Part shown: positions 8,275-37,271 of the stretch, piece after piece
How positions within the stretch are numbered: position 1 is the first letter of the stretch
Layout: each line of letters starts with the position of its first letter
NCBI GenBank assembly: GCA_022826665.1
Contig: JAJDUK010000047.1
Location: 137,442 to 201,441, forward strand
Direction: 5' to 3'
From: Alphaproteobacteria bacterium
GTDB lineage: Bacteria; Pseudomonadota; Alphaproteobacteria; UBA828
DNA: 64,000 bases
Translations under genes and position numbers: made by a program
Notes under the pieces: model-generated
The model's database searches: none
Told to the model about the DNA's origin: nothing
Seen by the model: only the letters and a program-made list of their open reading frames with translations

Positions 8275-9489
8275 ATGGCCGCCGGCCACGACGAGACGGA
8301 CGACGCCGGCGAGGAGGGCCCAGCGCCAGACGGGGCGCCGGTCGAAGCCCATGTTCTGAGCTCCATCACGCAGGTGGACGCAGCCGCCTGGGATCGCTGC
8401 GCCGGCCCCGATAACCCCTTCGTGCGCCACGCTTTTCTCGCCGCGCTGGAGGAGAGCGGCTCGAGCACGGGCGAGACCGGCTGGCAACCCCGGCACATCG
8501 TCCTCAAGACCCCGCAAGGCGCCGCCCTCGGCGCCGTGCCGATGTATCTCAAGAACCATTCCTACGGCGAATATGTCTTCGACCACGGCTGGGCGGACGC
8601 GTTCGAGCGGGCGGGCGGGCGCTACTATCCCAAGCTCCAGGTCTCGGTTCCGTTCACGCCGGTGACCGGGCCACGCCTGCTGACCCCGCCGGGGCCGGGC
8701 GCGGAAGCGGTGAGGACGGCGCTTCTTTCCACCTGCGTCGGCATTTGCGACCAGATCGGCGTGTCTTCGGTGCACATCACCTTCCCCACCGAGGACGAGT
8801 TCGACCTGATGGGCGAGGCCGGGCTCCTGCAACGGACGGGCATCCAGTTCCACTGGCTGAACGAGGGCTATGGGAGCTTCGACGACTTCCTCGCCAGCCT
8901 CGCCTCGCGCAAGCGCAAGCAGATCCGCAAAGAGCGACAGGCGGTTGCAGACTCCGGCCTCACGATCATGGCGCTGACGGGCAACGAGATCGAGGAGCGC
9001 CACTGGGACGCCTTCTTCGCCTTCTACCAGGCGACCGGCAGCCGCAAGTGGGGGGTGCCCTACCTCACGCGCGAATTCTTCAGCCTGCTGGGCGAGCGGA
9101 TGTCCGACGCGGTGGTGCTGGTGATGGTGGAGCGGGACGGCCGGCCCATCGCAGGCGCGCTCAACCTTGCAGGCTCGGATGCGCTCTACGGCCGCAACTG
9201 GGGCGCCGTCGAGGAGCACCGCTTCCTGCACTTCGAGGCCTGCTACTACCGTGCCATCGACTACGCCATCGCCCACGGGCTCAAGCGGGTCGAGGCCGGC
9301 GCCCAGGGTCCGCACAAGCTCGCACGCGGCTACCTGCCGGTGCCCACCTATTCCGCACACTGGGTCGCCAACGAAAGCCTGCGCGATGCGGTCGCCCACT
9401 ACCTCGATCACGAGACCCGGGAGATCGACCGCGAGATCACCGTGCTGGAGCGGCACGGCCCCTTCCGCCAGAGCGATGACGCGGCGTGA
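8275..9489 (+). CDS. GNAT/FemAB-like protein (DUF482-type)
   Basis: HSYGEYVFDHGWA, YYPKL, PFTPVTG, LYGRNWG, LHFEACYY, EAGAQG. Confidence 0.88.
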   Translation: MAAGHDETDDAGEEGPAPDGAPVEAHVLSSITQVDAAAWDRCAGPDNPFVRHAFLAALEESGSSTGETGWQPRHIVLKTPQGAALGAVPMYLKNHSYGEYVFDHGWADAFERAGGRYYPKLQVSVPFTPVTGPRLLTPPGPGAEAVRTALLSTCVGICDQIGVSSVHITFPTEDEFDLMGEAGLLQRTGIQFHWLNEGYGSFDDFLASLASRKRKQIRKERQAVADSGLTIMALTGNEIEERHWDAFFAFYQATGSRKWGVPYLTREFFSLLGERMSDAVVLVMVERDGRPIAGALNLAGSDALYGRNWGAVEEHRFLHFEACYYRAIDYAIAHGLKRVEAGAQGPHKLARGYLPVPTYSAHWVANESLRDAVAHYLDHETREIDREITVLERHGPFRQSDDAA

Positions 9490-19938: not shown

Positions 19939-20829
19939 TCAGTCTCCCTGGCCGATCATCTTCATGATGCCGGAAAAATCGTCCGCCCCGTTGCCGGCGT
20001 TGCAGAAGAGTGTATAGAGCGCCGCAGCTTCCGCGCCGAGCGGCGATGCCGCGCCGGCTGAGGCCGCAGCGGTCTGGGCGAGGCGCAGGTCCTTCAGCAT
20101 CATGGCCGCCGTGAAGCCCGGCGCGTAGTCGCGGTTGGACGGCGCGTTCGGCACCGGCCCCGGCACCGGGCAGTAGGAGGTGAGCGCCCAGCACTGGCCG
20201 GTCGCCTTGGAGACGATGTCGAAGAGGGTCTGGCGCTCCAGCCCGAGCCGGTCCGCCATCCCGAAGGCCTCGCAGACCCCGATCATCGAGACCGCGAGGA
20301 TCAGGTTGTTGCAGACTTTGGCAGTCTGCCCGGCGCCCGATGCGCCGGCGTGGATCACGGCCTTGCCCATGTCGCCCAGCACCGGCCGGGCGCGCTCCAC
20401 CGAGTCCGCCTCGCCGCCCACCATGAAGGTCAGCGTGCCAGCCGCAGCGCCGGCGACGCCGCCCGAGACCGGCGCATCCAGCAGCGGCCAGCCGCCCTCG
20501 GCCGCCGTCGCGGCGACCGCGCGGGCGGTATCGACGTCGATGGTCGAGCAGTCGATCAGCAGCGTGCCGGGCGCGGCAACCGAAAGCACCCCGCCTTCGC
20601 CGCGATAGACCTCCGACACCTCGCCGCCGGCGGGAAGCATGGTGACGACCACCTCGCGCCCGGCCGCGGCCTCGGCCACCGTGCTCGCCGTTGCACAACC
20701 TGCCTCTCGGGCTCTCTCCACGGCATCCGCGCTGATGTCGAAGGCGGAGACGGCATGGCCGGCCTTCGCCAGATTGGCGGCCATCGGCCCTCCCATGTTG
20801 CCGAGCCCGATGAAACCCACTTCAGCCAT
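19939..20829 (-). CDS. mmsB: 3-hydroxyisobutyrate dehydrogenase
   Basis: FIGLGNMGGPMA, DAPVSGG, KVCNN, YCPVPG, MLKDL; in a valine-degradation cluster. Confidence 0.93.
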   Translation of the reverse strand: MAEVGFIGLGNMGGPMAANLAKAGHAVSAFDISADAVERAREAGCATASTVAEAAAGREVVVTMLPAGGEVSEVYRGEGGVLSVAAPGTLLIDCSTIDVDTARAVAATAAEGGWPLLDAPVSGGVAGAAAGTLTFMVGGEADSVERARPVLGDMGKAVIHAGASGAGQTAKVCNNLILAVSMIGVCEAFGMADRLGLERQTLFDIVSKATGQCWALTSYCPVPGPVPNAPSNRDYAPGFTAAMMLKDLRLAQTAAASAGAASPLGAEAAALYTLFCNAGNGADDFSGIMKMIGQGD

Positions 20830-20882
20830 ATCGAAATCTCCCTCACCTGTCGCTCGCCGTCAGCGGCGCTATTTCCGACCCG

Positions 20883-29905: not shown

Positions 29906-30925
29906 CTAACGGAAGTGCGGAATCACGTGGTCGGCGTAGGCGGCGACGATCTGCTCCTCGCCGCCGTTGGTAAGGTAGATGTTGAACTGGGTGACGCCGG
30001 CGGCCTCCAGCGCGCGGATCTTCTCCACATGGGCCTCGGCCGGGCCGATCACGCAGAAGTCCTCGGTGATCTCCGGCGAGACATAGGCACTGTTGTCTGA
30101 CTCCAGTGCGGTGTGCTGGCGGTAGTCGTAGCCCTCGTCGGCGCCGACGCCCTCGCGCTGCGCGATGTAAGCGGTGAGGCTCTCAGGCACGAGGTCGGTG
30201 CCCGCGCCGTGGTGCTTCACGATGTCGGCCACGTGGTTGCCCACCAGCGCCGGGAACCACTTGGTCTGGGCGATCCCGGCCTCGCGGTCGCCGACCCAGA
30301 CCGGTGCGCAGGCCATGACGCGGTAGTCCGCCATGTCGCGGCCTTCAGCGCGGCCGGCGGCGCGGGCCTGGTCCCCCATCCACTGACAGAGGCCGACATC
30401 GCCGAGCTGCACGATCAGCCCGTCGCCGACGCGGCCGGCCGCCGCCAGTGCACGCGGCCCGTAGGCTGCAACCCAGACAGGCATCTCGTAGCCGCCGGTC
30501 CAGTCGAACTGTACCGGCTCCGGCACGCCCTCGTAGCTGACCGCCTCGCCCCGCACCAGCGCCTTCATGGCGTGGCAGAACTCCTCCAGGCGCGCCACCG
30601 TCGCCGGCCGCTTGCCGATGGCCCGCACGGCACTGTCGCCGCGCCCCACGCCCATGTCGAAGCGGCCGTCTGATTGCACCGCCATCGCCCCGAACAGGCT
30701 CGCAGCCACCGACCATTCGCGGGTCATCGGATTGGTGACGCAGGGACCAAAGCGCAGCCGCTGTGTGTGGTCGATGGCGACCGCCATCTGTGGGTAAAGG
30801 TCGCGCCACAGCGCGTGGCTGTCGAAGAACCAGGCATAGTCGAAGCCTGCCGCCTCGGCCTGGCGGCAGATGGCGACGACGCGATCCTTCTCAAGGTCGC
30901 CGCGAAAGGTGATGGCGAATTCCAT
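29906..30925 (-). CDS. LLM-class, probably F420-dependent, oxidoreductase
   Basis: AWFFDSH, GPCVTNP, GVGRGDSA, AAYGP; directly downstream of npdG. Confidence 0.85.
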   Translation of the reverse strand: MEFAITFRGDLEKDRVVAICRQAEAAGFDYAWFFDSHALWRDLYPQMAVAIDHTQRLRFGPCVTNPMTREWSVAASLFGAMAVQSDGRFDMGVGRGDSAVRAIGKRPATVARLEEFCHAMKALVRGEAVSYEGVPEPVQFDWTGGYEMPVWVAAYGPRALAAAGRVGDGLIVQLGDVGLCQWMGDQARAAGRAEGRDMADYRVMACAPVWVGDREAGIAQTKWFPALVGNHVADIVKHHGAGTDLVPESLTAYIAQREGVGADEGYDYRQHTALESDNSAYVSPEITEDFCVIGPAEAHVEKIRALEAAGVTQFNIYLTNGGEEQIVAAYADHVIPHFR

Positions 30926-30941
30926 GGTCGCCTCCGCTCCG

Positions 30942-31610
30942 TTACTCGGCCTCCGGCCAGATTTTCACGCCTGCATGCTTGAAGCCCGTCGCCTTCGACA
31001 TATTGAGGCGGATCAGCAGCGGTGTCAGCGCCTCAATGCAGCGCGCGCTCTCGGCCGGGCCGCAGTTGTAGGCGCGGGCACCGATGGTCTCGACCAGGTC
31101 CATCACCGCGCGCTTCGCCTCCAGGTCGTCGCCGCAGACGAGAATGTCGCAATTGATCGGCTGATCAAGGGCTGCAAGCACGTGGGCGGAGACGTTGTGG
31201 AGCGCTCCCACTACCGAGACGCCTTCGCCCAGCATCGCCTGCGCCGCCTCGGTCGCCGAGCCCTCCGGCGGCATCGCGGTGCGCCGGGGATTGCCGTCGG
31301 CGAGCGGCACCGCCATGTCCACCAGGATCTTGCCCTGCAGTGCCTCGGTAAGCCCCGCGAGGGTCGCCTGGTGCGCGCTCCACGGCACAGCCAGCACGAC
31401 CATGCGCTCGGCCCGCGTGACCGCGTCGGCGTTGGCGGCGCCTTCGATCGACCCCGGTGCATCAGGCACACCGGCTCTCAGATCGACGGCGATCTCCGCC
31501 GCGCGGGCGGCATCGCGCGACCCGACCACGACGTCAATGCCGGCAAGCGCGCAGCGCTGCGTTAGCCCGCGACCCTGGGGGCCGGTGCCTCCGATCACGG
31601 CGATTGCCAT
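30942..31610 (-). CDS. npdG: NADPH-dependent F420 reductase
   Basis: [35 protein letters not shown]. Confidence 0.88.
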
Positions 31611-31642: not shown

Positions 31643-32167
31643 CTACGCGTCGTAGGCGACGAGAGAGGTGATCGGCAGGTCGAGGCGTTGACGCCCGCCG
31701 AGGAAGCTCAGCTCAATGATGAAGGCCGCCGCCACCACCTCGGCACCCACTTGGCGCAGCAGAGCATGCGACGCGGCCGCCGTGCCCCCGGTTGCAAGCA
31801 AATCATCGACCAGGACAACCCGCTGACCCGGCGCGACGGCGTCGGCCTGCACCTCGACCTGATCGGTGCCGTACTCGAGCGCGTATTCATACGCCACGGT
31901 CTCGCCCGGCAGCTTGCCCTTCTTGCGTACCATGATGAAGCCACAGCCGAGTGCGTGCGCCACCGGCGCCGCGACCAGAAAGCCGCGGGATTCGATGCCT
32001 GCGAGGAGATCGGGCTTGTGACTGCCGACCACATCGACGAGACGCTGCACCGTCTCGCCCCAGGCCCGCGCGTGGGCGAGCAGGGTCGAGATGTCGTAAA
32101 AGAGGATGCCTGGCTTGGGAAAGTCAGGAATTTCGCGGATGTGGTCGCGCAGGTCGAAGGCGGACAT
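31643..32167 (-). CDS. apt: Adenine phosphoribosyltransferase
   Basis: [37 protein letters not shown]. Confidence 0.96.
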
Positions 32168-32208
32168 GGCTGCCCCCAATCAGCGCAAGAGGCCTTTGTC
32201 CTCCGCGA

Positions 32209-32598
32209 TCACTCGGCGCCGGTGGCTTCCTTGAGATAGGCGATCAGGTTGTCGCGGTCCTTTTCCTTCCTGACCCCCTTGAACGCCATCTTGTTCTTCG
32301 GAATGTAACCCTTGGGATCGGCAATATAGGCTCTGATCGTCTCCTCGTCCCAGACGATTGCCGCGTCCTTCATCGCGTCCGAGTATTTCTTGAAGCCCTC
32401 GGCCGTGCCCGAGGTGCGACCGAAGACGCCGTGGAGGTTCGGGCCGACCTTGTGTTTCCCGCCTTCCTTGACGGTGTGGCACACCTTGCACTTCTTGAAG
32501 ACCTTCTTGCCCTTCTTAACATCGGCGGCAATGGCGGAGGCGCTTGCCGCCATCATGAAGGTGGCGAGGGCAACGGCGAGGACGTGTCGTACGCGCAC
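32209..32598 (-). CDS. Class I cytochrome c (cytochrome c2-like)
   Basis: Signal peptide, [17 protein letters not shown] axial Met; AAGGAG RBS before GTG at 32598. Confidence 0.93.
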
Positions 32599-32730
32599 GG
32601 GTATCTCCTTAGGTCTGGTCCCGATCATGCGGTGAACGCGCGAACATAAGCCGGGTCCGCACCCGCGATCAAGCAGGCCATGCAGCCGGTGGCGCGCTGT
32701 TCCGGGGAGTAGCGCGCCACTAGCAGGTGG

Positions 32731-34014
32731 CTACTGGACCCGATACTCCTCGTCGAGGAAGAAGCGGCTGTCATAGTCCTCGACGCCAAGGTGGCACTCC
32801 GCGCAGAAGACGACGTTCTTGGCGCCCTTGCCGCCGGTCGTGCCGATGGTCCGGCCGCTCGGCATGATCAGCGTGTAGCGCCAGTCGCCGGTATCAGCGT
32901 TGAAGCCGGCTTCCATCTTCTCCATCAGGAAGAGTGGCCCGGCGCCGATCTTGCCGTTGGGTTTGACGGTGAAGCTGTCCTTGGCCAGCACGGTTCCGAC
33001 GGGCGCAGGCCCCGCCTCTTCGAAGAGGCTGTAATTGTCGGCGCCGATGTCGTTGGCGTAGTTGTTGACGTAGCGCGCGCCGTGGGTATCGGAGACGTAA
33101 GGCTGGGCCGCGACATTCCGCCAGTTCAGGTAGGACGCCGCCCACTGATTGCCCGACTTGGCGTATCCCTCGGCCATGACCGCACTGATGCAGGCGTAGG
33201 CGTCTCGGGCCTCGTCCGCGGTCAGCTCGACCTCTTCGCCGGCCGCGCAGGGGTTGCATGGATTGCAGGCGCCGCACGGTGCGCAGGGATTGCACGGACC
33301 ACATGGATTGCACGGGTTACAGGGGCTGCACGGGTTCGCCGCTGCACATGGGTTGCAAGGACCGCACGGGTTGCACGGTGCGCAGGCAGCGGCGCATGGA
33401 TTGCACGGCTCGCACGGGCTGCAGGGACCGCATGGGTTGCATGCTGTGGCGCAAGGGTTGCAAGGCCCACAGGGATTGCAAGCACTCGCGCAGGGATTGC
33501 ATGGACCGCACGGAGCACATGGCCCGCAGGGGCTGCCGGCGGCAGCGAGGCGCGGAACCACGCAGTCCGAACTGATCGCAGCGCCTGCTACGCACGGGTT
33601 GCAGGCGCCGCACGGCCCGCAGGCGCCCGCACAGGGATTGCAAGGGTTGCACGGTCCGCAAGGGCCGCAGGCGCCCGCACAGGGGTTACAGGGGTTGCAT
33701 GCAGCTGCGCAGGGGTTGCACGGATCACATGGATTACACGGTCCGCAAGCACCACAAGCGGCGGCACAGGGGTTGCAGGGATTGCACGGCCCGCAAGGTC
33801 CGCAGGCGGCCGCGCACGGGTTGCACGGACTGCACGGTCCGCACGGATTGCAGGAGGCCAAGAGCAGCACGCCCGGATCCTGATGCTGCGGGGTCGCCGC
33901 CGGGCTTTCGCCGGTGGATGTACCGGCCGTGGCGTGGCCGCCACTGGTGGCGACCGCGAGCCCGATGACCACAGGGACCACTGTTCCGGCAAGCAAGGTG
34001 TTCGAGCGTGGCAT
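32731..34014 (-). CDS. Secreted cytochrome P460-family protein with N-terminal (Cys-X-Pro)n repeat region
   Basis: GGGAGG RBS, hydrophobic leader, 202-aa Cys-rich region, then [29 protein letters not shown] and C-terminal CAECH. Confidence 0.82.
33247..33852 (-). repeat. Coding 9-bp-period repeat encoding (C-N/G/S/A/D/E-P)n
   Basis: 59 Cys in 202 codons by hand count; two blocks separated by [19 protein letters not shown]. Confidence 0.95.
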
Positions 34015-34146
34015 GTCGGGCCTCCCTTGATGGCGTGATGACGGCACTCTGAGCGAATTGTCGGCGAGCGCATGGTGCGGGGCAAACCCCTTCGACTCAA
34101 ATTTTTGTGATTCCCGTGCCGGGTGAGCGGCAGCTAGGCTGCTGCA

Positions 34147-35022
34147 ATGGTTTTCTCCCGCGCACTCCTTGCGGTCTGTCTCGCGACCTGCGGCCTGGTC
34201 CTCGGGGGCGCTTCATATGCTGGTTCGGTGCCAGTTCCAGTCCTGGCGGAGGTCCCGACCGGCCCCTTCATCGCGGGCTCCGACGCGGCCGAGCGGGAAT
34301 ACGCCTACCAGCTCGACGAGGCGGCCTACGGCCACTCCCGAACGCGGGAACGCGGCTGGTACGACCGCGAGCGCCCGCGCGGGACCAAGACCCTTGATGG
34401 CTTTTTCATCACGCGCACGCTGATCACCAATGCCCAGTACGCGGCTTTCGTGGATGCCACGGGCCACCGCGTGCCCGATGTCGATCCCGAGACCTGGCGC
34501 GGCTACCGGCTGATCCACCCCTACGAGCGCACCCGCCGCCACGCGTGGACGGAGGGAGTTCCGCCGCCTGGGCGCGAAAACCATCCCGTGGTCATGGTCT
34601 CGCACGACGACGCCAATGCCTACGCGGCCTGGCTCTCGGCCGAGACCGGGCGCACCTGGCGGCTCCCCACCGAGCTCGAATGGGAGAAGGCCGCGCGCGG
34701 CACAGACGGCCGCATCTTCCCCTGGGGCGATACGTTCGACCCGGCGCTGCTCAACAGCCATGATTCCGGTCCCTTCGACACGCTGCCGGTCGGCAGCTTT
34801 CGCGCCGGTGCAAGCCCTTACGGCCTGCTGGATCCGGCAGGCATGGCCTTTGAGTGGACCGCCTCGCCCGGCAATCCGGGGCGCTTCCTCGTCAAGGGCG
34901 GATCATGGGACGACAGCGGCTGCGGCATCTGCCGCCCTGCGGCGCGTCACGGTCGGCCGGCGGACATCAAGCACATCCTCGTCGGCTTCCGCCTCGTCGT
35001 CGATCCGGGCGCGGGGGGTTAG
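34147..35022 (+). CDS. Secreted FGE-sulfatase/SUMF1-fold protein
   Basis: Signal peptide; [41 protein letters not shown]. Confidence 0.88.
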
Positions 35023-35104
35023 CCTCCTCGGTCTGGCAAGAGCAAGCCCGCGGCACTATCTTTTCCTGGCGGAACGGCCAGCGAACGGGCGACAGAGCGG
35101 CAGA

Positions 35105-35866
35105 ATGGCCCAGGCTTCAGCGGCGAAGAGCGAGCGGCAGGAGGAGACCCGCCACCTCGACATGGCGACACAGCCGGTGAAGCGGCTGCGCATGATGCTC
35201 GCCGCCGGCGAGGAGGTGCAGGAGGTCGAGCGGGTGCTCGGCAGGACCGGCGATAATGTGGTGAGCGAGCTGCTGCGCGGGCGCGGGACGTTCTACGAGT
35301 GGGACCATTACCCGAAAGGGGACGTCTTCGACGGTCAGAGCCACTCCCAGTATTTCTACCACGCCCATCCCGGCGGCTTCCGGGACACCGAGCACGGCCA
35401 CTTCCACACCTTCGTGCGCGCCAAAGGGATGCCGCGCGGCATGAAGCCCATGCGCCGCAAGAAGCGCGACAAGTGGCCCATGGGGGACAAAGCGCTCACC
35501 CACGTCGTCGCCATCTCGATGGGGTCGAAGGGTCAGCCTCTCAGGCTTTTCACCACCAACCGCTGGGTCACTGGCGAGACCTGGTATCGAGCCGATGACG
35601 TGGCAAAGGTGATCGGCCGCTTCGTCATCGACCACGCCCGCCCGTCATGGCCGACCAACCGCTGGGTCGGCGCCATGATCCGCCTCTTCTGGCCGCAGAT
35701 CATCCTGCTGGTCAAGGCGCGTGATCAGGTGATCGAGAACTGGGCTGCCCAGAATCCGAAGAAAGATACCCTCGAGGATCGTCGCCTCGAGGTCGTCTCG
35801 CAGGCCGAGGTGGATATCGAGGCCCAGATTGCCGCTATCAAGGCGGCCCTTGCCGAGAGAACCTAA
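35105..35866 (+). CDS. His-rich hypothetical protein, DUF6969-like
   Basis: WDHYPKGDVFD, SQYFYHAH, EHGHFHTF, THVVAISM, LFTTNRWVTGETW; family name from memory; start 35105 or 35162. Confidence 0.65.
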   Translation: MAQASAAKSERQEETRHLDMATQPVKRLRMMLAAGEEVQEVERVLGRTGDNVVSELLRGRGTFYEWDHYPKGDVFDGQSHSQYFYHAHPGGFRDTEHGHFHTFVRAKGMPRGMKPMRRKKRDKWPMGDKALTHVVAISMGSKGQPLRLFTTNRWVTGETWYRADDVAKVIGRFVIDHARPSWPTNRWVGAMIRLFWPQIILLVKARDQVIENWAAQNPKKDTLEDRRLEVVSQAEVDIEAQIAAIKAALAERT

Positions 35867-35914
35867 GGCGCAGCCGACCCCCCGCTGTCACGGCTCCCGT
35901 ACCGCGATAAAGAA

Positions 35915-35936
35915 CGCCGCCTCTCCCGAGGCGGCG
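35915..35936 (-). terminator. Intrinsic terminator of the small Cys-repeat gene (possibly bidirectional)
   Basis: CGCCGCCTC-TCCC-GAGGCGGCG 9-bp stem followed on the minus strand by TTCTTT. Confidence 0.75.
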
Positions 35937-35967
35937 CCTTTGGATAATGTTGTCGTTACCCTTGAGC

Positions 35968-36324
35968 TTACTCGGCAGCACACGGGTTGCAAGCCTCGCA
36001 CGGATTGCAAGCCTCGCAAGGGTTGCAGGCATCCGCCACGACGATGCGCTCGTCCAAGGAAGACTCGCACGGGTTGCAAGCCTCGCACGGATTGCAAGCC
36101 TCGCAAGGGTTGCAGGCATCCGCGACGACGATGCCCTCATCCAAGGAAGATTCGCATGGGTTGCAAGCCTCGCACGGGTTACAAGCCCCGCACGGGTTGC
36201 ACGGATCCTCGTGCGAGTCCGCAACGACGATCGGCTGCTCCCCAGCGGACACGGCCGACGGCGCAAGAGCGGCGCCGGCCGCCATGGTAACGATACTCAC
36301 GGCGACCACTGTTTCCTTGATCAT
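35968..36324 (-). CDS. Small secreted protein with three Cys-rich CNPC cassettes
   Basis: GGAGGA RBS, ATG at 36324, Sec-type signal (…PSAVSA), 18 Cys in three cassettes, own terminator. Confidence 0.85.
35980..36231 (-). repeat. 87-bp tandem repeat (about 3 copies) containing an 18-bp sub-repeat
   Basis: Units start at 35981, 36068 and 36155; unit encodes [28 protein letters not shown](G/R). Confidence 0.95.
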
Positions 36325-36494
36325 TTTCGTAGTCTCCTCCTCGCAGACGCGAATTTGATTGGTTTGAATTGGGGCTTCGCGCCGCCTCGGCGGGTTGTCG
36401 AACCATACGAAGCCCACGCCATTGTGGTGTATATCGGCGGCGAGCAAAAGTGCTTTCGTTTCGATGACGGGAATGTGAGCGACGGGGACGGCCG

Positions 36495-37271
36495 ATGCCG
36501 GTCGCGAGCAGCGAAGATTACGCGAGGCTGGCTGCCACCGCGCGGCAATTGGCGCTGGAGGCCGGGCGGACGATCATGGCCTTCTACCGCGACGGCACGC
36601 CGGTCGAGACGAAGGCCGATTCCACACCCGTGACCGAGGCGGACCGGGCGGCGGATCGCCTCATCGTCGCGGGCTTGCAGGCCGCGACTCCCGACATCCC
36701 CGTGATTTCCGAGGAGAGCACAAGCACCGGCCTGCCACCCGCCGGCGGGCGCTTCTGGCTCGTCGATCCGCTTGATGGTACCAGAGACTTCATCGCTCGC
36801 ACCGGCGAGTTCACGATCAACATCGCTTTGATCGAAGGTGGCCGTCCGGTGCTCGGCGTGCTCCACGCCCCGGTCCAGGATGAGACCTATGTCGCCGACG
36901 GACTGGGGCAGGCGGTGCGCATGGTAGGCGACGGCCCGCCGCAGGCGATCCGGGCGCGTCCGGTGCCTGCCAGGGGCCCTGCGGTCATCGCCAGCCGCCT
37001 ACACCGTGACGCCGAGACCGACGCCTATATCGCGGGACTCGAACCTGCGCGGATCGAGAGCGCGGGGAGCGCCCTGAAATTCGGGCTGCTCGCGCGGGGC
37101 GCGGCCGATGTGTACCCCCGCTTTGGCCGCACCATGGAGTGGGACACCGCCGCCGGCCAGGCGATCCTCACGGCGGCGGGAGGTCATGTCCGCGACCTGC
37201 AGGGCCATGAGCTGCGCTATGGCAAGGCGGACTTCGTGAATCCATCCTTCGTCGCCTGCGGCGTGGATTAG
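36495..37271 (+). CDS. cysQ: 3'(2'),5'-bisphosphate nucleotidase
   Basis: [42 protein letters not shown]. Confidence 0.93.

Follow-up and report, generated by a model that had tools for sequence, protein, structure and literature searches.

Work on cytochrome P460 has centered on nitrifiers and methanotrophs, where the family is represented by small stand-alone enzymes that convert hydroxylamine into nitric oxide (NO) and nitrous oxide (N2O). The 64,000-nucleotide (nt) stretch of alphaproteobacterial DNA analyzed here (positions 137,442 to 201,441 of contig JAJDUK010000047.1, assembly GCA_022826665.1), called the window throughout, encodes a protein in which a heme domain of this family is fused to cysteine-rich arms built on Asn-Pro-Cys (NPC) units, and these arms may possibly buffer soft metals in the periplasm. 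Compared with the P460s of Nitrosomonas europaea and Methylococcus capsulatus (2je2/2je3 and 6hiu), the fusion protein has the same fold, the single C-terminal CxxCH, and the Lys at the cross-link column, but it is only ~18–20% identical to them, carries ~250 additional N-terminal residues with 59 Cys, and has Gly370 at the column of Glu96/Asp102; AMO was not found in its own genome. No PDB sequence matches it except 7s5o. The "halfway-house" P460 of Nitrosomonas sp. AL212 (NsP460, 6amg) likewise has the Lys without a carboxylate at the aligned column, according to Table 2 of a review of the family (PMC11928373). The closest solved sequence, the cytochrome c'-beta-Met 7s5o, has a Met where the fusion family has a Lys, and neither 6amg nor 7s5o has Cys-rich extensions, unlike the fusion protein. 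The accessible part of the review mentions no Cys-rich or N-terminal extensions and no fusions (PMC11928373), and a search of the literature found no paper that joins cytochrome P460 with cysteine-rich sequences or periplasmic CNPC repeats, nor one on DUF6969, the family of a neighboring gene product. The heme domain thus belongs to a known family, while no description was found in the literature of the poly-Cys arms, of the gene cluster, or of the link with DUF6969.

The cysteine-rich part has likenesses in other systems. Bufferins, as described in the accessible part of PMC12452194, are also signal-peptide-bearing periplasmic Cys peptides associated with cytochrome c and with an FGE-type domain. 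However, Pfam and NCBIfam find no DUF2282/Buf domain in the fusion protein or in a small paralog encoded nearby, the neighboring protein is FGE-like and not MNIO, and no MNIO (DUF692) enzyme was found in the cluster (five genes) or in its flanks (20 genes). With metallothioneins and Csp proteins, the arms share a Cys-rich composition, the lack of His and aromatic residues, and CxxC units, and to judge by this composition they may also share a multi-site binding capacity. The known bacterial metallothioneins are cytosolic and lack a regular N-P-C unit, and Csp is a folded helical bundle, whereas the arms are predicted to be disordered and are fused to a heme domain. The SoxAX/SoxYZ system combines a ligand-binding heme with a flexible carrier Cys, which is comparable in plan, and a SoxA/TsdA-type domain does bear NPC arms in a few proteins (see following). 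SoxY, for its part, is a folded protein whose only Cys is in the GGCGG arm at its C-terminus, and no sox genes were found in the cluster of the fusion gene.

Architecture of the fusion protein

To judge from its sequence, the gene product is an exported c-type heme protein that belongs to the cytochrome P460 family and retains the cross-link Lys (coordinates in Table 1). The Pfam profile Cytochrome_P460 (PF16694) matches residues 305–427, counted from an upstream GTG, with 30.6 bits for a cut-off of 27; all other residue numbers given here count from the ATG. The AlphaFold2 model, built on 89 family sequences, has a predicted local distance difference test score (pLDDT) of ~95 over the C-terminal 167 residues, and in a Foldseek search of the PDB only P460 and c'-beta structures are listed in the 18 best-ranked rows (ranks 1–23, with similar chains left out) and among the 12 matches with E ≤ 0.001 (TM-scores on the target of 0.70 for 7ead, 0.68 for 6hiu, and 0.48 for 2je2). 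The original prediction had assigned the C-terminal domain to the P460/c'-beta family from the letters of the sequence, and this assignment stands.

The same prediction held that the domain has one CAECH and that the Lys of GTVLAKDS occupies the position of the heme cross-link. The motif lies at residues 404–408, and its C404, C407, and H408 are invariant among 89 sequences. Searches by sequence found a single solved relative, the cytochrome c'-beta of N. europaea (7s5o; E = 9e-4 for the protein itself and 0.007 for the family profile), and in two independent HMMER alignments K345 of GTVLAKDS faces the Met of …SIVIMEIY… in that structure. From a 20-residue numbering offset, we infer that this Met (chain index 59) is Met79, which Table 2 of the review equates with the cross-linking Lys70/78/106 (PMC11928373). 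The Lys is kept in all 121 close homologs and in 111 of 124 representatives clustered at 50% identity (5 have Met). Because it is also kept in 22 of the 23 representatives that bear repeats, the heme site appears to be under selection. The column of the catalytic carboxylate, the distal proton acceptor (Ala109 of 7s5o; Glu96/Asp102 in the enzymes), faces Gly370, a Gly in 113 of the 124 representatives, and an indel adjoins it; of the acidic residues nearby, E368 is not conserved and E365 is kept in 110 of the 124.

For the arms, the original prediction counted 59 Cys in residues 55–256, nearly all spaced i,i+3 and with no His among them, and the recount agrees on each point. The protein has 62 Cys in 427 residues, of which 59 are in this region; 47 of the 58 gaps between successive Cys are of 3 residues, 8 are of 4, and there is one each of 6, 10, and 12. 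When the 202-residue region was shuffled (n = 10,000), the number of i,i+3 gaps averaged 8.5 and never exceeded 19. The region is 29% Cys (C59 P47 A35 N24 G20) and contains neither His nor any aromatic residue, so that the sequence features of a metallothionein (high Cys, no His or aromatics, CxxC motifs) are all found in it. Its most frequent triplets are CNP (23), CGP (13), CSP (3), and CAP (3). Since Pro precedes 46 of the 59 Cys (x-Pro follows 44), the repeat unit is better written x-Pro-Cys, with (N/G)PC giving CxPC pairs. The 23 CNP units are encoded by 10 different 9-mers, and the repeat copies identified by TRF in the DNA of the fusion gene match at only 57–78%. Hence, the Cys repeat is kept at the level of the protein and is not an artifact of fresh DNA slippage.

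The same unit is found throughout the family. Among the 2775 arm Cys of the family, Pro is at position −1 in 67%, Asn at −2 in 59%, and Pro at +2 in 53%. A spacing of 3 (CxxC) is the most frequent (1561 times, and dominant in 104 of 114 repeat-bearing proteins), followed by 6 (535 times) and 5 (223 times). The family arms are 16.5% Cys, 0.3% His, and <1% aromatic. Typical relatives have CNPC or CNPCNPC separated by AAK spacers; such Lys-rich spacers are present in many of them, and the net charge of the arms reaches +39. A few relatives use (ANPCA)n, with a spacing of 5, and some have no repeat at all. Because the runs are short in most relatives and the register varies, the conserved unit is the CxPC dithiol and not a long rail.

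In the predicted structure, a linker strand packed on the heme domain is flanked by two arms that are intrinsically disordered, variable in length, and built of CxPC dithiol units. The arms have no regular structure (pLDDT < 50 for residues 1–88, 105–143, and most of 198–256), and the sole confident element outside the heme domain is the linker, with a strand at 147–152 and a short helix at 154–160 (block pLDDT 95). The linker carries a C-x-[VI]-P-R-L motif, found in 95 of 121 homologs, which includes C151; the Cys of AYACIS, C275, is in helix 1 of the heme domain. In the 93 motif-bearing proteins that could be scored, the helix Cys is present in 92, and the 8 proteins that lack the helix Cys also lack the motif (8/8). 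Another 18 proteins have the helix Cys without the motif, some of them being N-terminally truncated gene calls. The pairing of these two Cys, suggested from the start as a possibility, is compatible with both the docked strand and this co-occurrence. A C151–C275 disulfide would staple the linker to the heme domain and make arm 2 a closed loop beside the heme.

As for the start of the gene, the open reading frame can be extended to a GTG (32731..34047, minus strand), but the ATG at 34014 is the likely start, because GGGAGG lies 6 nt upstream of it and homologs begin with MPRSN… or MPRTN…. The N-terminal hydrophobic segment follows the pattern LLSxTVxPxxxGxG, which is common to some arm-only proteins. 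In the form K/R-x-x-LL-S-x-T-V-x-P…G-x-G it is unusually conserved, and it recurs on the arm-only proteins of two further loci (L102 and L111). For these reasons, it may have a role beyond that of an ordinary signal peptide.

Table 1. Features of the fusion gene and its neighborhood (positions in the window)
Feature	Position	Strand	Remarks
Class I cytochrome c, CycA/c550-like, with signal peptide	32209..32628	-	102 nt downstream of the P460 gene
NPC-arm/cytochrome P460 fusion gene	32731..34014	-	427 aa from the ATG at 34014; stop 32731-32733
Residues 1-30: positively charged N-terminus and hydrophobic segment (putative signal peptide or membrane anchor)	33925..34014	-	
Arm 1, residues 55-141	33592..33852	-	28 Cys, CxPC runs, predicted disordered
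Linker, residues 142-162: conserved C-x-V-P-R-L docking strand, including C151	33529..33591	-	Predicted structure
Arm 2, residues 163-256	33247..33528	-	30 Cys, predicted disordered
Cytochrome P460-family heme domain, residues 257-427	32734..33246	-	Pfam, alignments, model, Foldseek
K345 codon within the heme domain	32980-32982	-	
CAECH, residues 404-408	32791-32805	-	
Dyad-like element TCACAAAAATTTGA	34097..34110	-	Between the divergent genes, 83-96 nt upstream of the P460 ATG
FGE-sulfatase-domain protein, 291 aa, divergent, N-terminal signal-like segment	34147..35022	+	PF03781, 3.6e-44
DUF6969 protein, no signal peptide, seven invariant His	35108..35866	+	PF22308, 9.4e-84
Small secreted arm-only paralog, 118 aa	35968..36324	-	Signal peptide, CNPC run, then two full copies of a 29-aa unit

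Distribution and gene neighborhood

A word-indexed protein search returned 202 homologs of 240–767 residues, and an exhaustive search of representatives clustered at 50% identity returned 688 proteins at E ≤ 1e-3, of which 99 reach E ≤ 1e-30; at least three NPC units are present in 25 of the best 148 representatives. Genomes taken one per species contain 456 related loci. The locus counts that follow concern 80 of these (L001–L080), with a context of 8 kb and some truncated contigs. They are mostly from marine Alphaproteobacteria, including the cultured genera Sneathiella, Aestuariispira, and Pelagibius, and DNA of the window is found in sponge metagenomes.

Arm length is highly variable. Relatives whose heme domains are 84–98% identical carry from 43 to 71 Cys, and the repeat itself persists across lineages whose heme domains are only ~50–55% identical. 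In contigs of other metagenomes, of sponge, coral, and marine origin, the repeats (window positions 33264–33843) contain indels of 9, 27, 30, and 54 nt as well as rearranged joins, a sign either that arm length is naturally polymorphic or that the repeats were hard to assemble. The repeat is also found outside P460. A SoxA-type fusion (P0129) used as a class-wide query matched through its repeat part only, so that this search amounts to a census of the repeat. Among 29 longer repeat-sharing proteins, 3 have a SoxA/TsdA-type heme domain with arms on both sides, and all others are P460 fusions, whole or in part.

Not all members of the subfamily have arms. At five loci (L068, L072, L073, L055, and L077) the repeat-bearing gene has as its immediate neighbor a P460 paralog from the same subfamily that has no repeats, and the Lys of the xKDSF site is present in all five (5/5). 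Known P460s are dimers, and for this reason the tandem arrangement hints at mixed dimers.

Of 301 genomes sampled from the class, 66 have DUF6969 (a tally that includes the unpublished genome G240), 42 the P460 subfamily, and 31 the repeat. DUF6969 is found in 35 of the 42 P460-positive genomes and in 31 of the 259 others; all 31 repeat-bearing genomes have DUF6969, compared with 35 of the 270 others. NirK, which the host genome of the window also encodes, is present in 9 of the 42 family-positive genomes and in 12 of the 259 others, and SoxY is mildly enriched (15/42 and 57/259). As kin are not independent, these figures describe an association and are not a test.

The conserved cluster consists of the P460 fusion, the FGE-like protein, DUF6969, a c550-type cytochrome, and the small secreted arm-only paralog. 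An FGE-like gene is present in 46 of the 80 loci, some of which have kept no other synteny, a DUF6969 gene in 48, a c550-type cytochrome in 30, and a second NPC-rich open reading frame without heme motif in about 33. The other neighbors in the window recur in only 18–27 of the 80 loci, all in close relatives, and the flanks of the cluster are housekeeping genes (20 window genes scanned). For example, a luciferase-like monooxygenase and an F420-type NADP oxidoreductase (29906–31610, minus strand, just downstream of the APRT gene) are syntenic in 18 of the 80 loci, in close relatives, and are probably unrelated to the cluster. Among loci that lack the usual partners, some have an OmpR-type regulator upstream (seen in 5), the repeat-less P460 paralog in tandem (5), or an SUF-type Rrf2 regulator (2).

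The host genome of the window has three NPC genes, namely the fusion, the 118-residue secreted paralog, and a gene of 74 residues on another contig. The last (contig C24 of genome G000, 20625–20849, minus strand; positions 8626–8850 of locus L093) has a signal peptide almost identical to that of the 118-residue paralog. It adjoins Mu-like phage portal and F genes, a PAP2/VCPO-like protein, and an amidase, a neighborhood that is uninformative on function.

From their sequences, the DUF6969 protein, rich in His, is assigned to the cytoplasm and the FGE-like protein to the periplasm. Sequence searches returned no solved relative of DUF6969. Among 47 FGE-like sequences the loop GGSWDD-x-GCG-x-CR is at least 95% conserved, and its two Cys, which follow GGSW, are spaced CxxC (CGxC). 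In a true FGE the Cys pair of the copper site comes after GGS[WFY] and is spaced C-x4-C; the two loop Cys presumably lie where FGE holds copper. The C-x-P-x-R substrate motif of FGE was not found in the 202-residue arm region, because the single Arg of the region is within C-V-V-P-R-L, that is, C-x-x-P-R. The FGE-like neighbor was also considered as a NirV, and this was rejected: the NirK locus of the same genome has no FGE-like gene, the nirK-linked FGE-like genes of five genomes are only 29–38% identical to it (tblastn), and the loop motif is not seen in the parts of the alignments shown.

Part of the cluster occurs without P460. Of 20 DUF6969 loci from P460-negative genomes, 6 have an arm-only NPC peptide and 8 have, by tblastn, a c550-like gene; in the 14 of these loci that were scanned with Pfam, a cytochrome c is next door in 5, and there is one multicopper oxidase (L113). 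A class I cytochrome c often adjoins DUF6969 where there is neither a P460 nor an NPC gene (L095, L105–L107, L109–L112), and the pair of cytochrome c and DUF6969 may represent a core that is older than the rest of the cluster. At locus L108 (6727–7113, minus strand), from a genome that has no NPC repeats, the neighbor of DUF6969 codes for a secreted repeat peptide rich in Cys, Gly, and His (…SHAGDCGG…). Because this peptide stands in for the NPC peptide, DUF6969 may pair with secreted metal-binding-like peptides in general.

The intergenic region between the divergent FGE-like and P460 genes contains a dyad-like element. The pattern TCAC[AG]N4[CT][GT]TGA is present in 24 of 30 such regions, a count inflated by the close relatedness of L001–L020 (shuffled sequences give 0.02 on average), and 5 more regions have one-off variants. 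Its distance from the P460-arm gene, upstream of which it lies, is 83–168 nt, except at a single locus with 49 nt, and some copies are perfect palindromes (TCACGAACACGTGA). The element is probably the operator of a regulator. The pattern has 11 hits in the whole host genome plus a few near-exact ones, for which crude calls of the downstream reading frames are uninterpretable, and no sigma-70 consensus promoter was found in positions 32000–36600. Regulation by an NO sensor of the NsrR type was rejected, as the Rrf2 genes beside two loci score 143 and 141 bits with the SUF profile (cut-off 110.65) and far below the cut-off with NsrR. In one metatranscriptome library, contigs ~90% alike cover the c550 gene, the 3′ end of the P460 gene, and the FGE-like gene; these contigs come from relatives, in a library that may hold DNA, and are no proof of transcription.

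Possible roles of the arms

The reading that we favor, as a possible rather than a probable one, is that the arms are a periplasmic soft-metal (copper-type) thiolate buffer that is redox-coupled to the heme. The arms would be a high-capacity buffer for soft thiophilic species, most likely Cu(I), with Cd, Zn, and Hg as other candidates. The turn made by each C-(N/G)-P-C unit would offer two thiolates as a chelate, buffering capacity would scale with the number of repeats, and the arm-only peptides would be an untethered form of this buffer. The FGE-like protein would have the arms or their metal as its target and would either oxidize or otherwise modify Cys or hand over copper. Electrons given or taken up by the P460 heme and cytochrome c550 would determine the thiol/disulfide state, and with it the loading and release of the arms. 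This reading is suggested by the metallothionein-like composition, by the variability of the arms, which is as one would expect of a capacity, by the stand-alone paralogs, and by the conserved FGE-like partner. The arm-only secreted paralogs (about 33 of 80 loci, two in the host genome, and 6 of the 20 loci from P460-negative genomes) further suggest that the arms can work without a heme. FGE is a cuproenzyme (as cited in the accessible part of PMC12452194), and the same text reports copper-binding bufferin fusions of the type Buf1|Cytochrom_C|FGE-sulfatase, which support a metal role because the triad of Cys peptide, cytochrome c, and FGE is the same. The FGE-like neighbor, the co-occurrence with DUF6969 in 31 of 31 genomes, the seven invariant His of DUF6969, and the enrichment of NirK, a copper enzyme, are counted for this reading; the Cys/Gly/His-rich peptide of L108 and the multicopper oxidase of L113 are counted as single-locus hints.

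Several observations weigh against such a buffer. No cop, cus, or mer genes and no regulators of the MerR, ArsR, or CsoR type were found among 62 neighbors at 19 related loci or among 20 window genes, nor were they seen in 29 neighbors at 14 DUF6969 loci, where the multicopper oxidase of L113 is the sole exception. Periplasmic copper sites are usually made of Met and His, and free Cys are prone to oxidation there; the arms have neither Met nor His. A metal sponge gives no reason for a fusion in cis to ligand-binding hemes, be it P460 or, in 3 of 29 proteins, the SoxA/TsdA type, and we know of no role of P460 hemes in metal handling. The canonical substrate motif of the FGE-like protein is absent from the arms. 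The enrichment of NirK fits NO chemistry equally well, and 33 of the 42 family-positive genomes have no NirK; the genome counts are, moreover, not phylogenetically independent.

The fusion to a heme is explained by a close rival, which we consider somewhat less likely. Here the arms are a tethered thiol trap: an arm thiolate would attack heme-bound NO, produced by the cell's own NirK or by its host, to give an S-nitrosothiol, the neighboring i+3 Cys would close a disulfide with release of HNO or N2O, and the electrons would pass to c550. The arms would thus be a swinging-arm sink for reactive nitrogen, and in the SoxA/TsdA-type fusions they would handle sulfur species, as SoxY does for SoxAX. 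According to the accessible part of the review, the only known chemistry of the P460 fold is the binding of NH2OH, NO, and CO (PMC11928373). The cross-link Lys is retained in all but one of the repeat-bearing representatives, the arms are in cis with two different ligand-binding heme domains, the docked linker of the model would place arm 2 as a loop on the heme domain, and c550 is encoded directly downstream. The host genome has NirK, with no AMO found, and NirK is more frequent in family-positive genomes. Yet NirK is missing from most of these genomes, arm-only peptides exist that have no heme, the FGE-like and DUF6969 partners are left unexplained, the Rrf2 regulator beside some loci is of the SUF type and not NsrR, and the catalytic carboxylate column aligns with a near-invariant Gly. 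For the sulfur variant, no sulfur-transport genes were seen among the same 62, 29, and 20 neighboring genes.

It is unlikely that the arms are a disulfide scaffold or redox capacitor. Exported CxxC units readily close to disulfides in the oxidizing periplasm, and the oxidized arms could form a cross-linked envelope tether or matrix, or else a multi-electron disulfide/dithiol reservoir for the low-potential heme. Hypervariable repeats are typical of envelope and matrix proteins, the Lys-rich spacers make the arms of many relatives strongly positive, and the C151–C275 staple is supported by co-occurrence. However, no oligomers or cross-links are in evidence, and neither the linkage to the FGE-like and DUF6969 genes nor the strict N/G-P-C unit is explained. 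We give similarly little credence to a reading that does use these partners, in which the N-P-C arms are a new class of processed periplasmic peptide: the exported FGE-like cuproenzyme, with DUF6969 as a helper, would oxidize arm Cys (e.g., to formylglycine or another group derived from the thiol), and the P460 or SoxA/TsdA-type heme would load and unload NO, hydroxylamine, or sulfur species in cis. If true, this would make the fusion a self-contained heme and carrier-arm detoxification machine without described counterpart.

More improbable still is that the protein is an ordinary periplasmic P460, a hydroxylamine or NO detoxifier, with the repeat as an inert low-complexity spacer. Repeat-less paralogs of the same subfamily do exist, sometimes in tandem with the repeat-bearing gene, and most of the best 148 representatives have fewer than three NPC units. 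Against an inert spacer, the Cys pattern is kept at the protein level with varied codons, the repeat persists across lineages with distant heme domains, it occurs as stand-alone secreted proteins, and it co-occurs with DUF6969 without exception in the sampled genomes. The polyproline-II thiol rail of the original prediction, a rigid three-residue helix with all thiols on one face as a wire, is the least credible reading: the window protein does have long i,i+3 runs with Pro at every third position, and X-X-Pro can adopt such a helix, but AlphaFold2 gives the arms no regular structure at pLDDT < 50 (although such tools are poor on polyproline II), the runs are 2–3 Cys long in most relatives, spacings of 5 and 6 are common beside 3 so that the register is not kept in the family, arm length varies freely between near-identical strains, and Asn-Pro favors turns.

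Implications for the family

Among Alphaproteobacteria that are marine heterotrophs or live with sponges, P460s of the Lys type form a common subfamily (42 of the 301 genomes; 456 loci), which alters the view of the family drawn from nitrifiers and methanotrophs. Many of its members carry dozens of Cys on arms predicted to be disordered, and these travel with an FGE-like protein and the His-rich DUF6969. The cultured carriers Sneathiella, Aestuariispira, and Pelagibius make the cluster directly testable. If the arms buffer copper or trap NO, the cluster would be a new periplasmic defense module linking heme N-oxide chemistry with thiol and metal homeostasis, and it would provide the first functional context for DUF6969.

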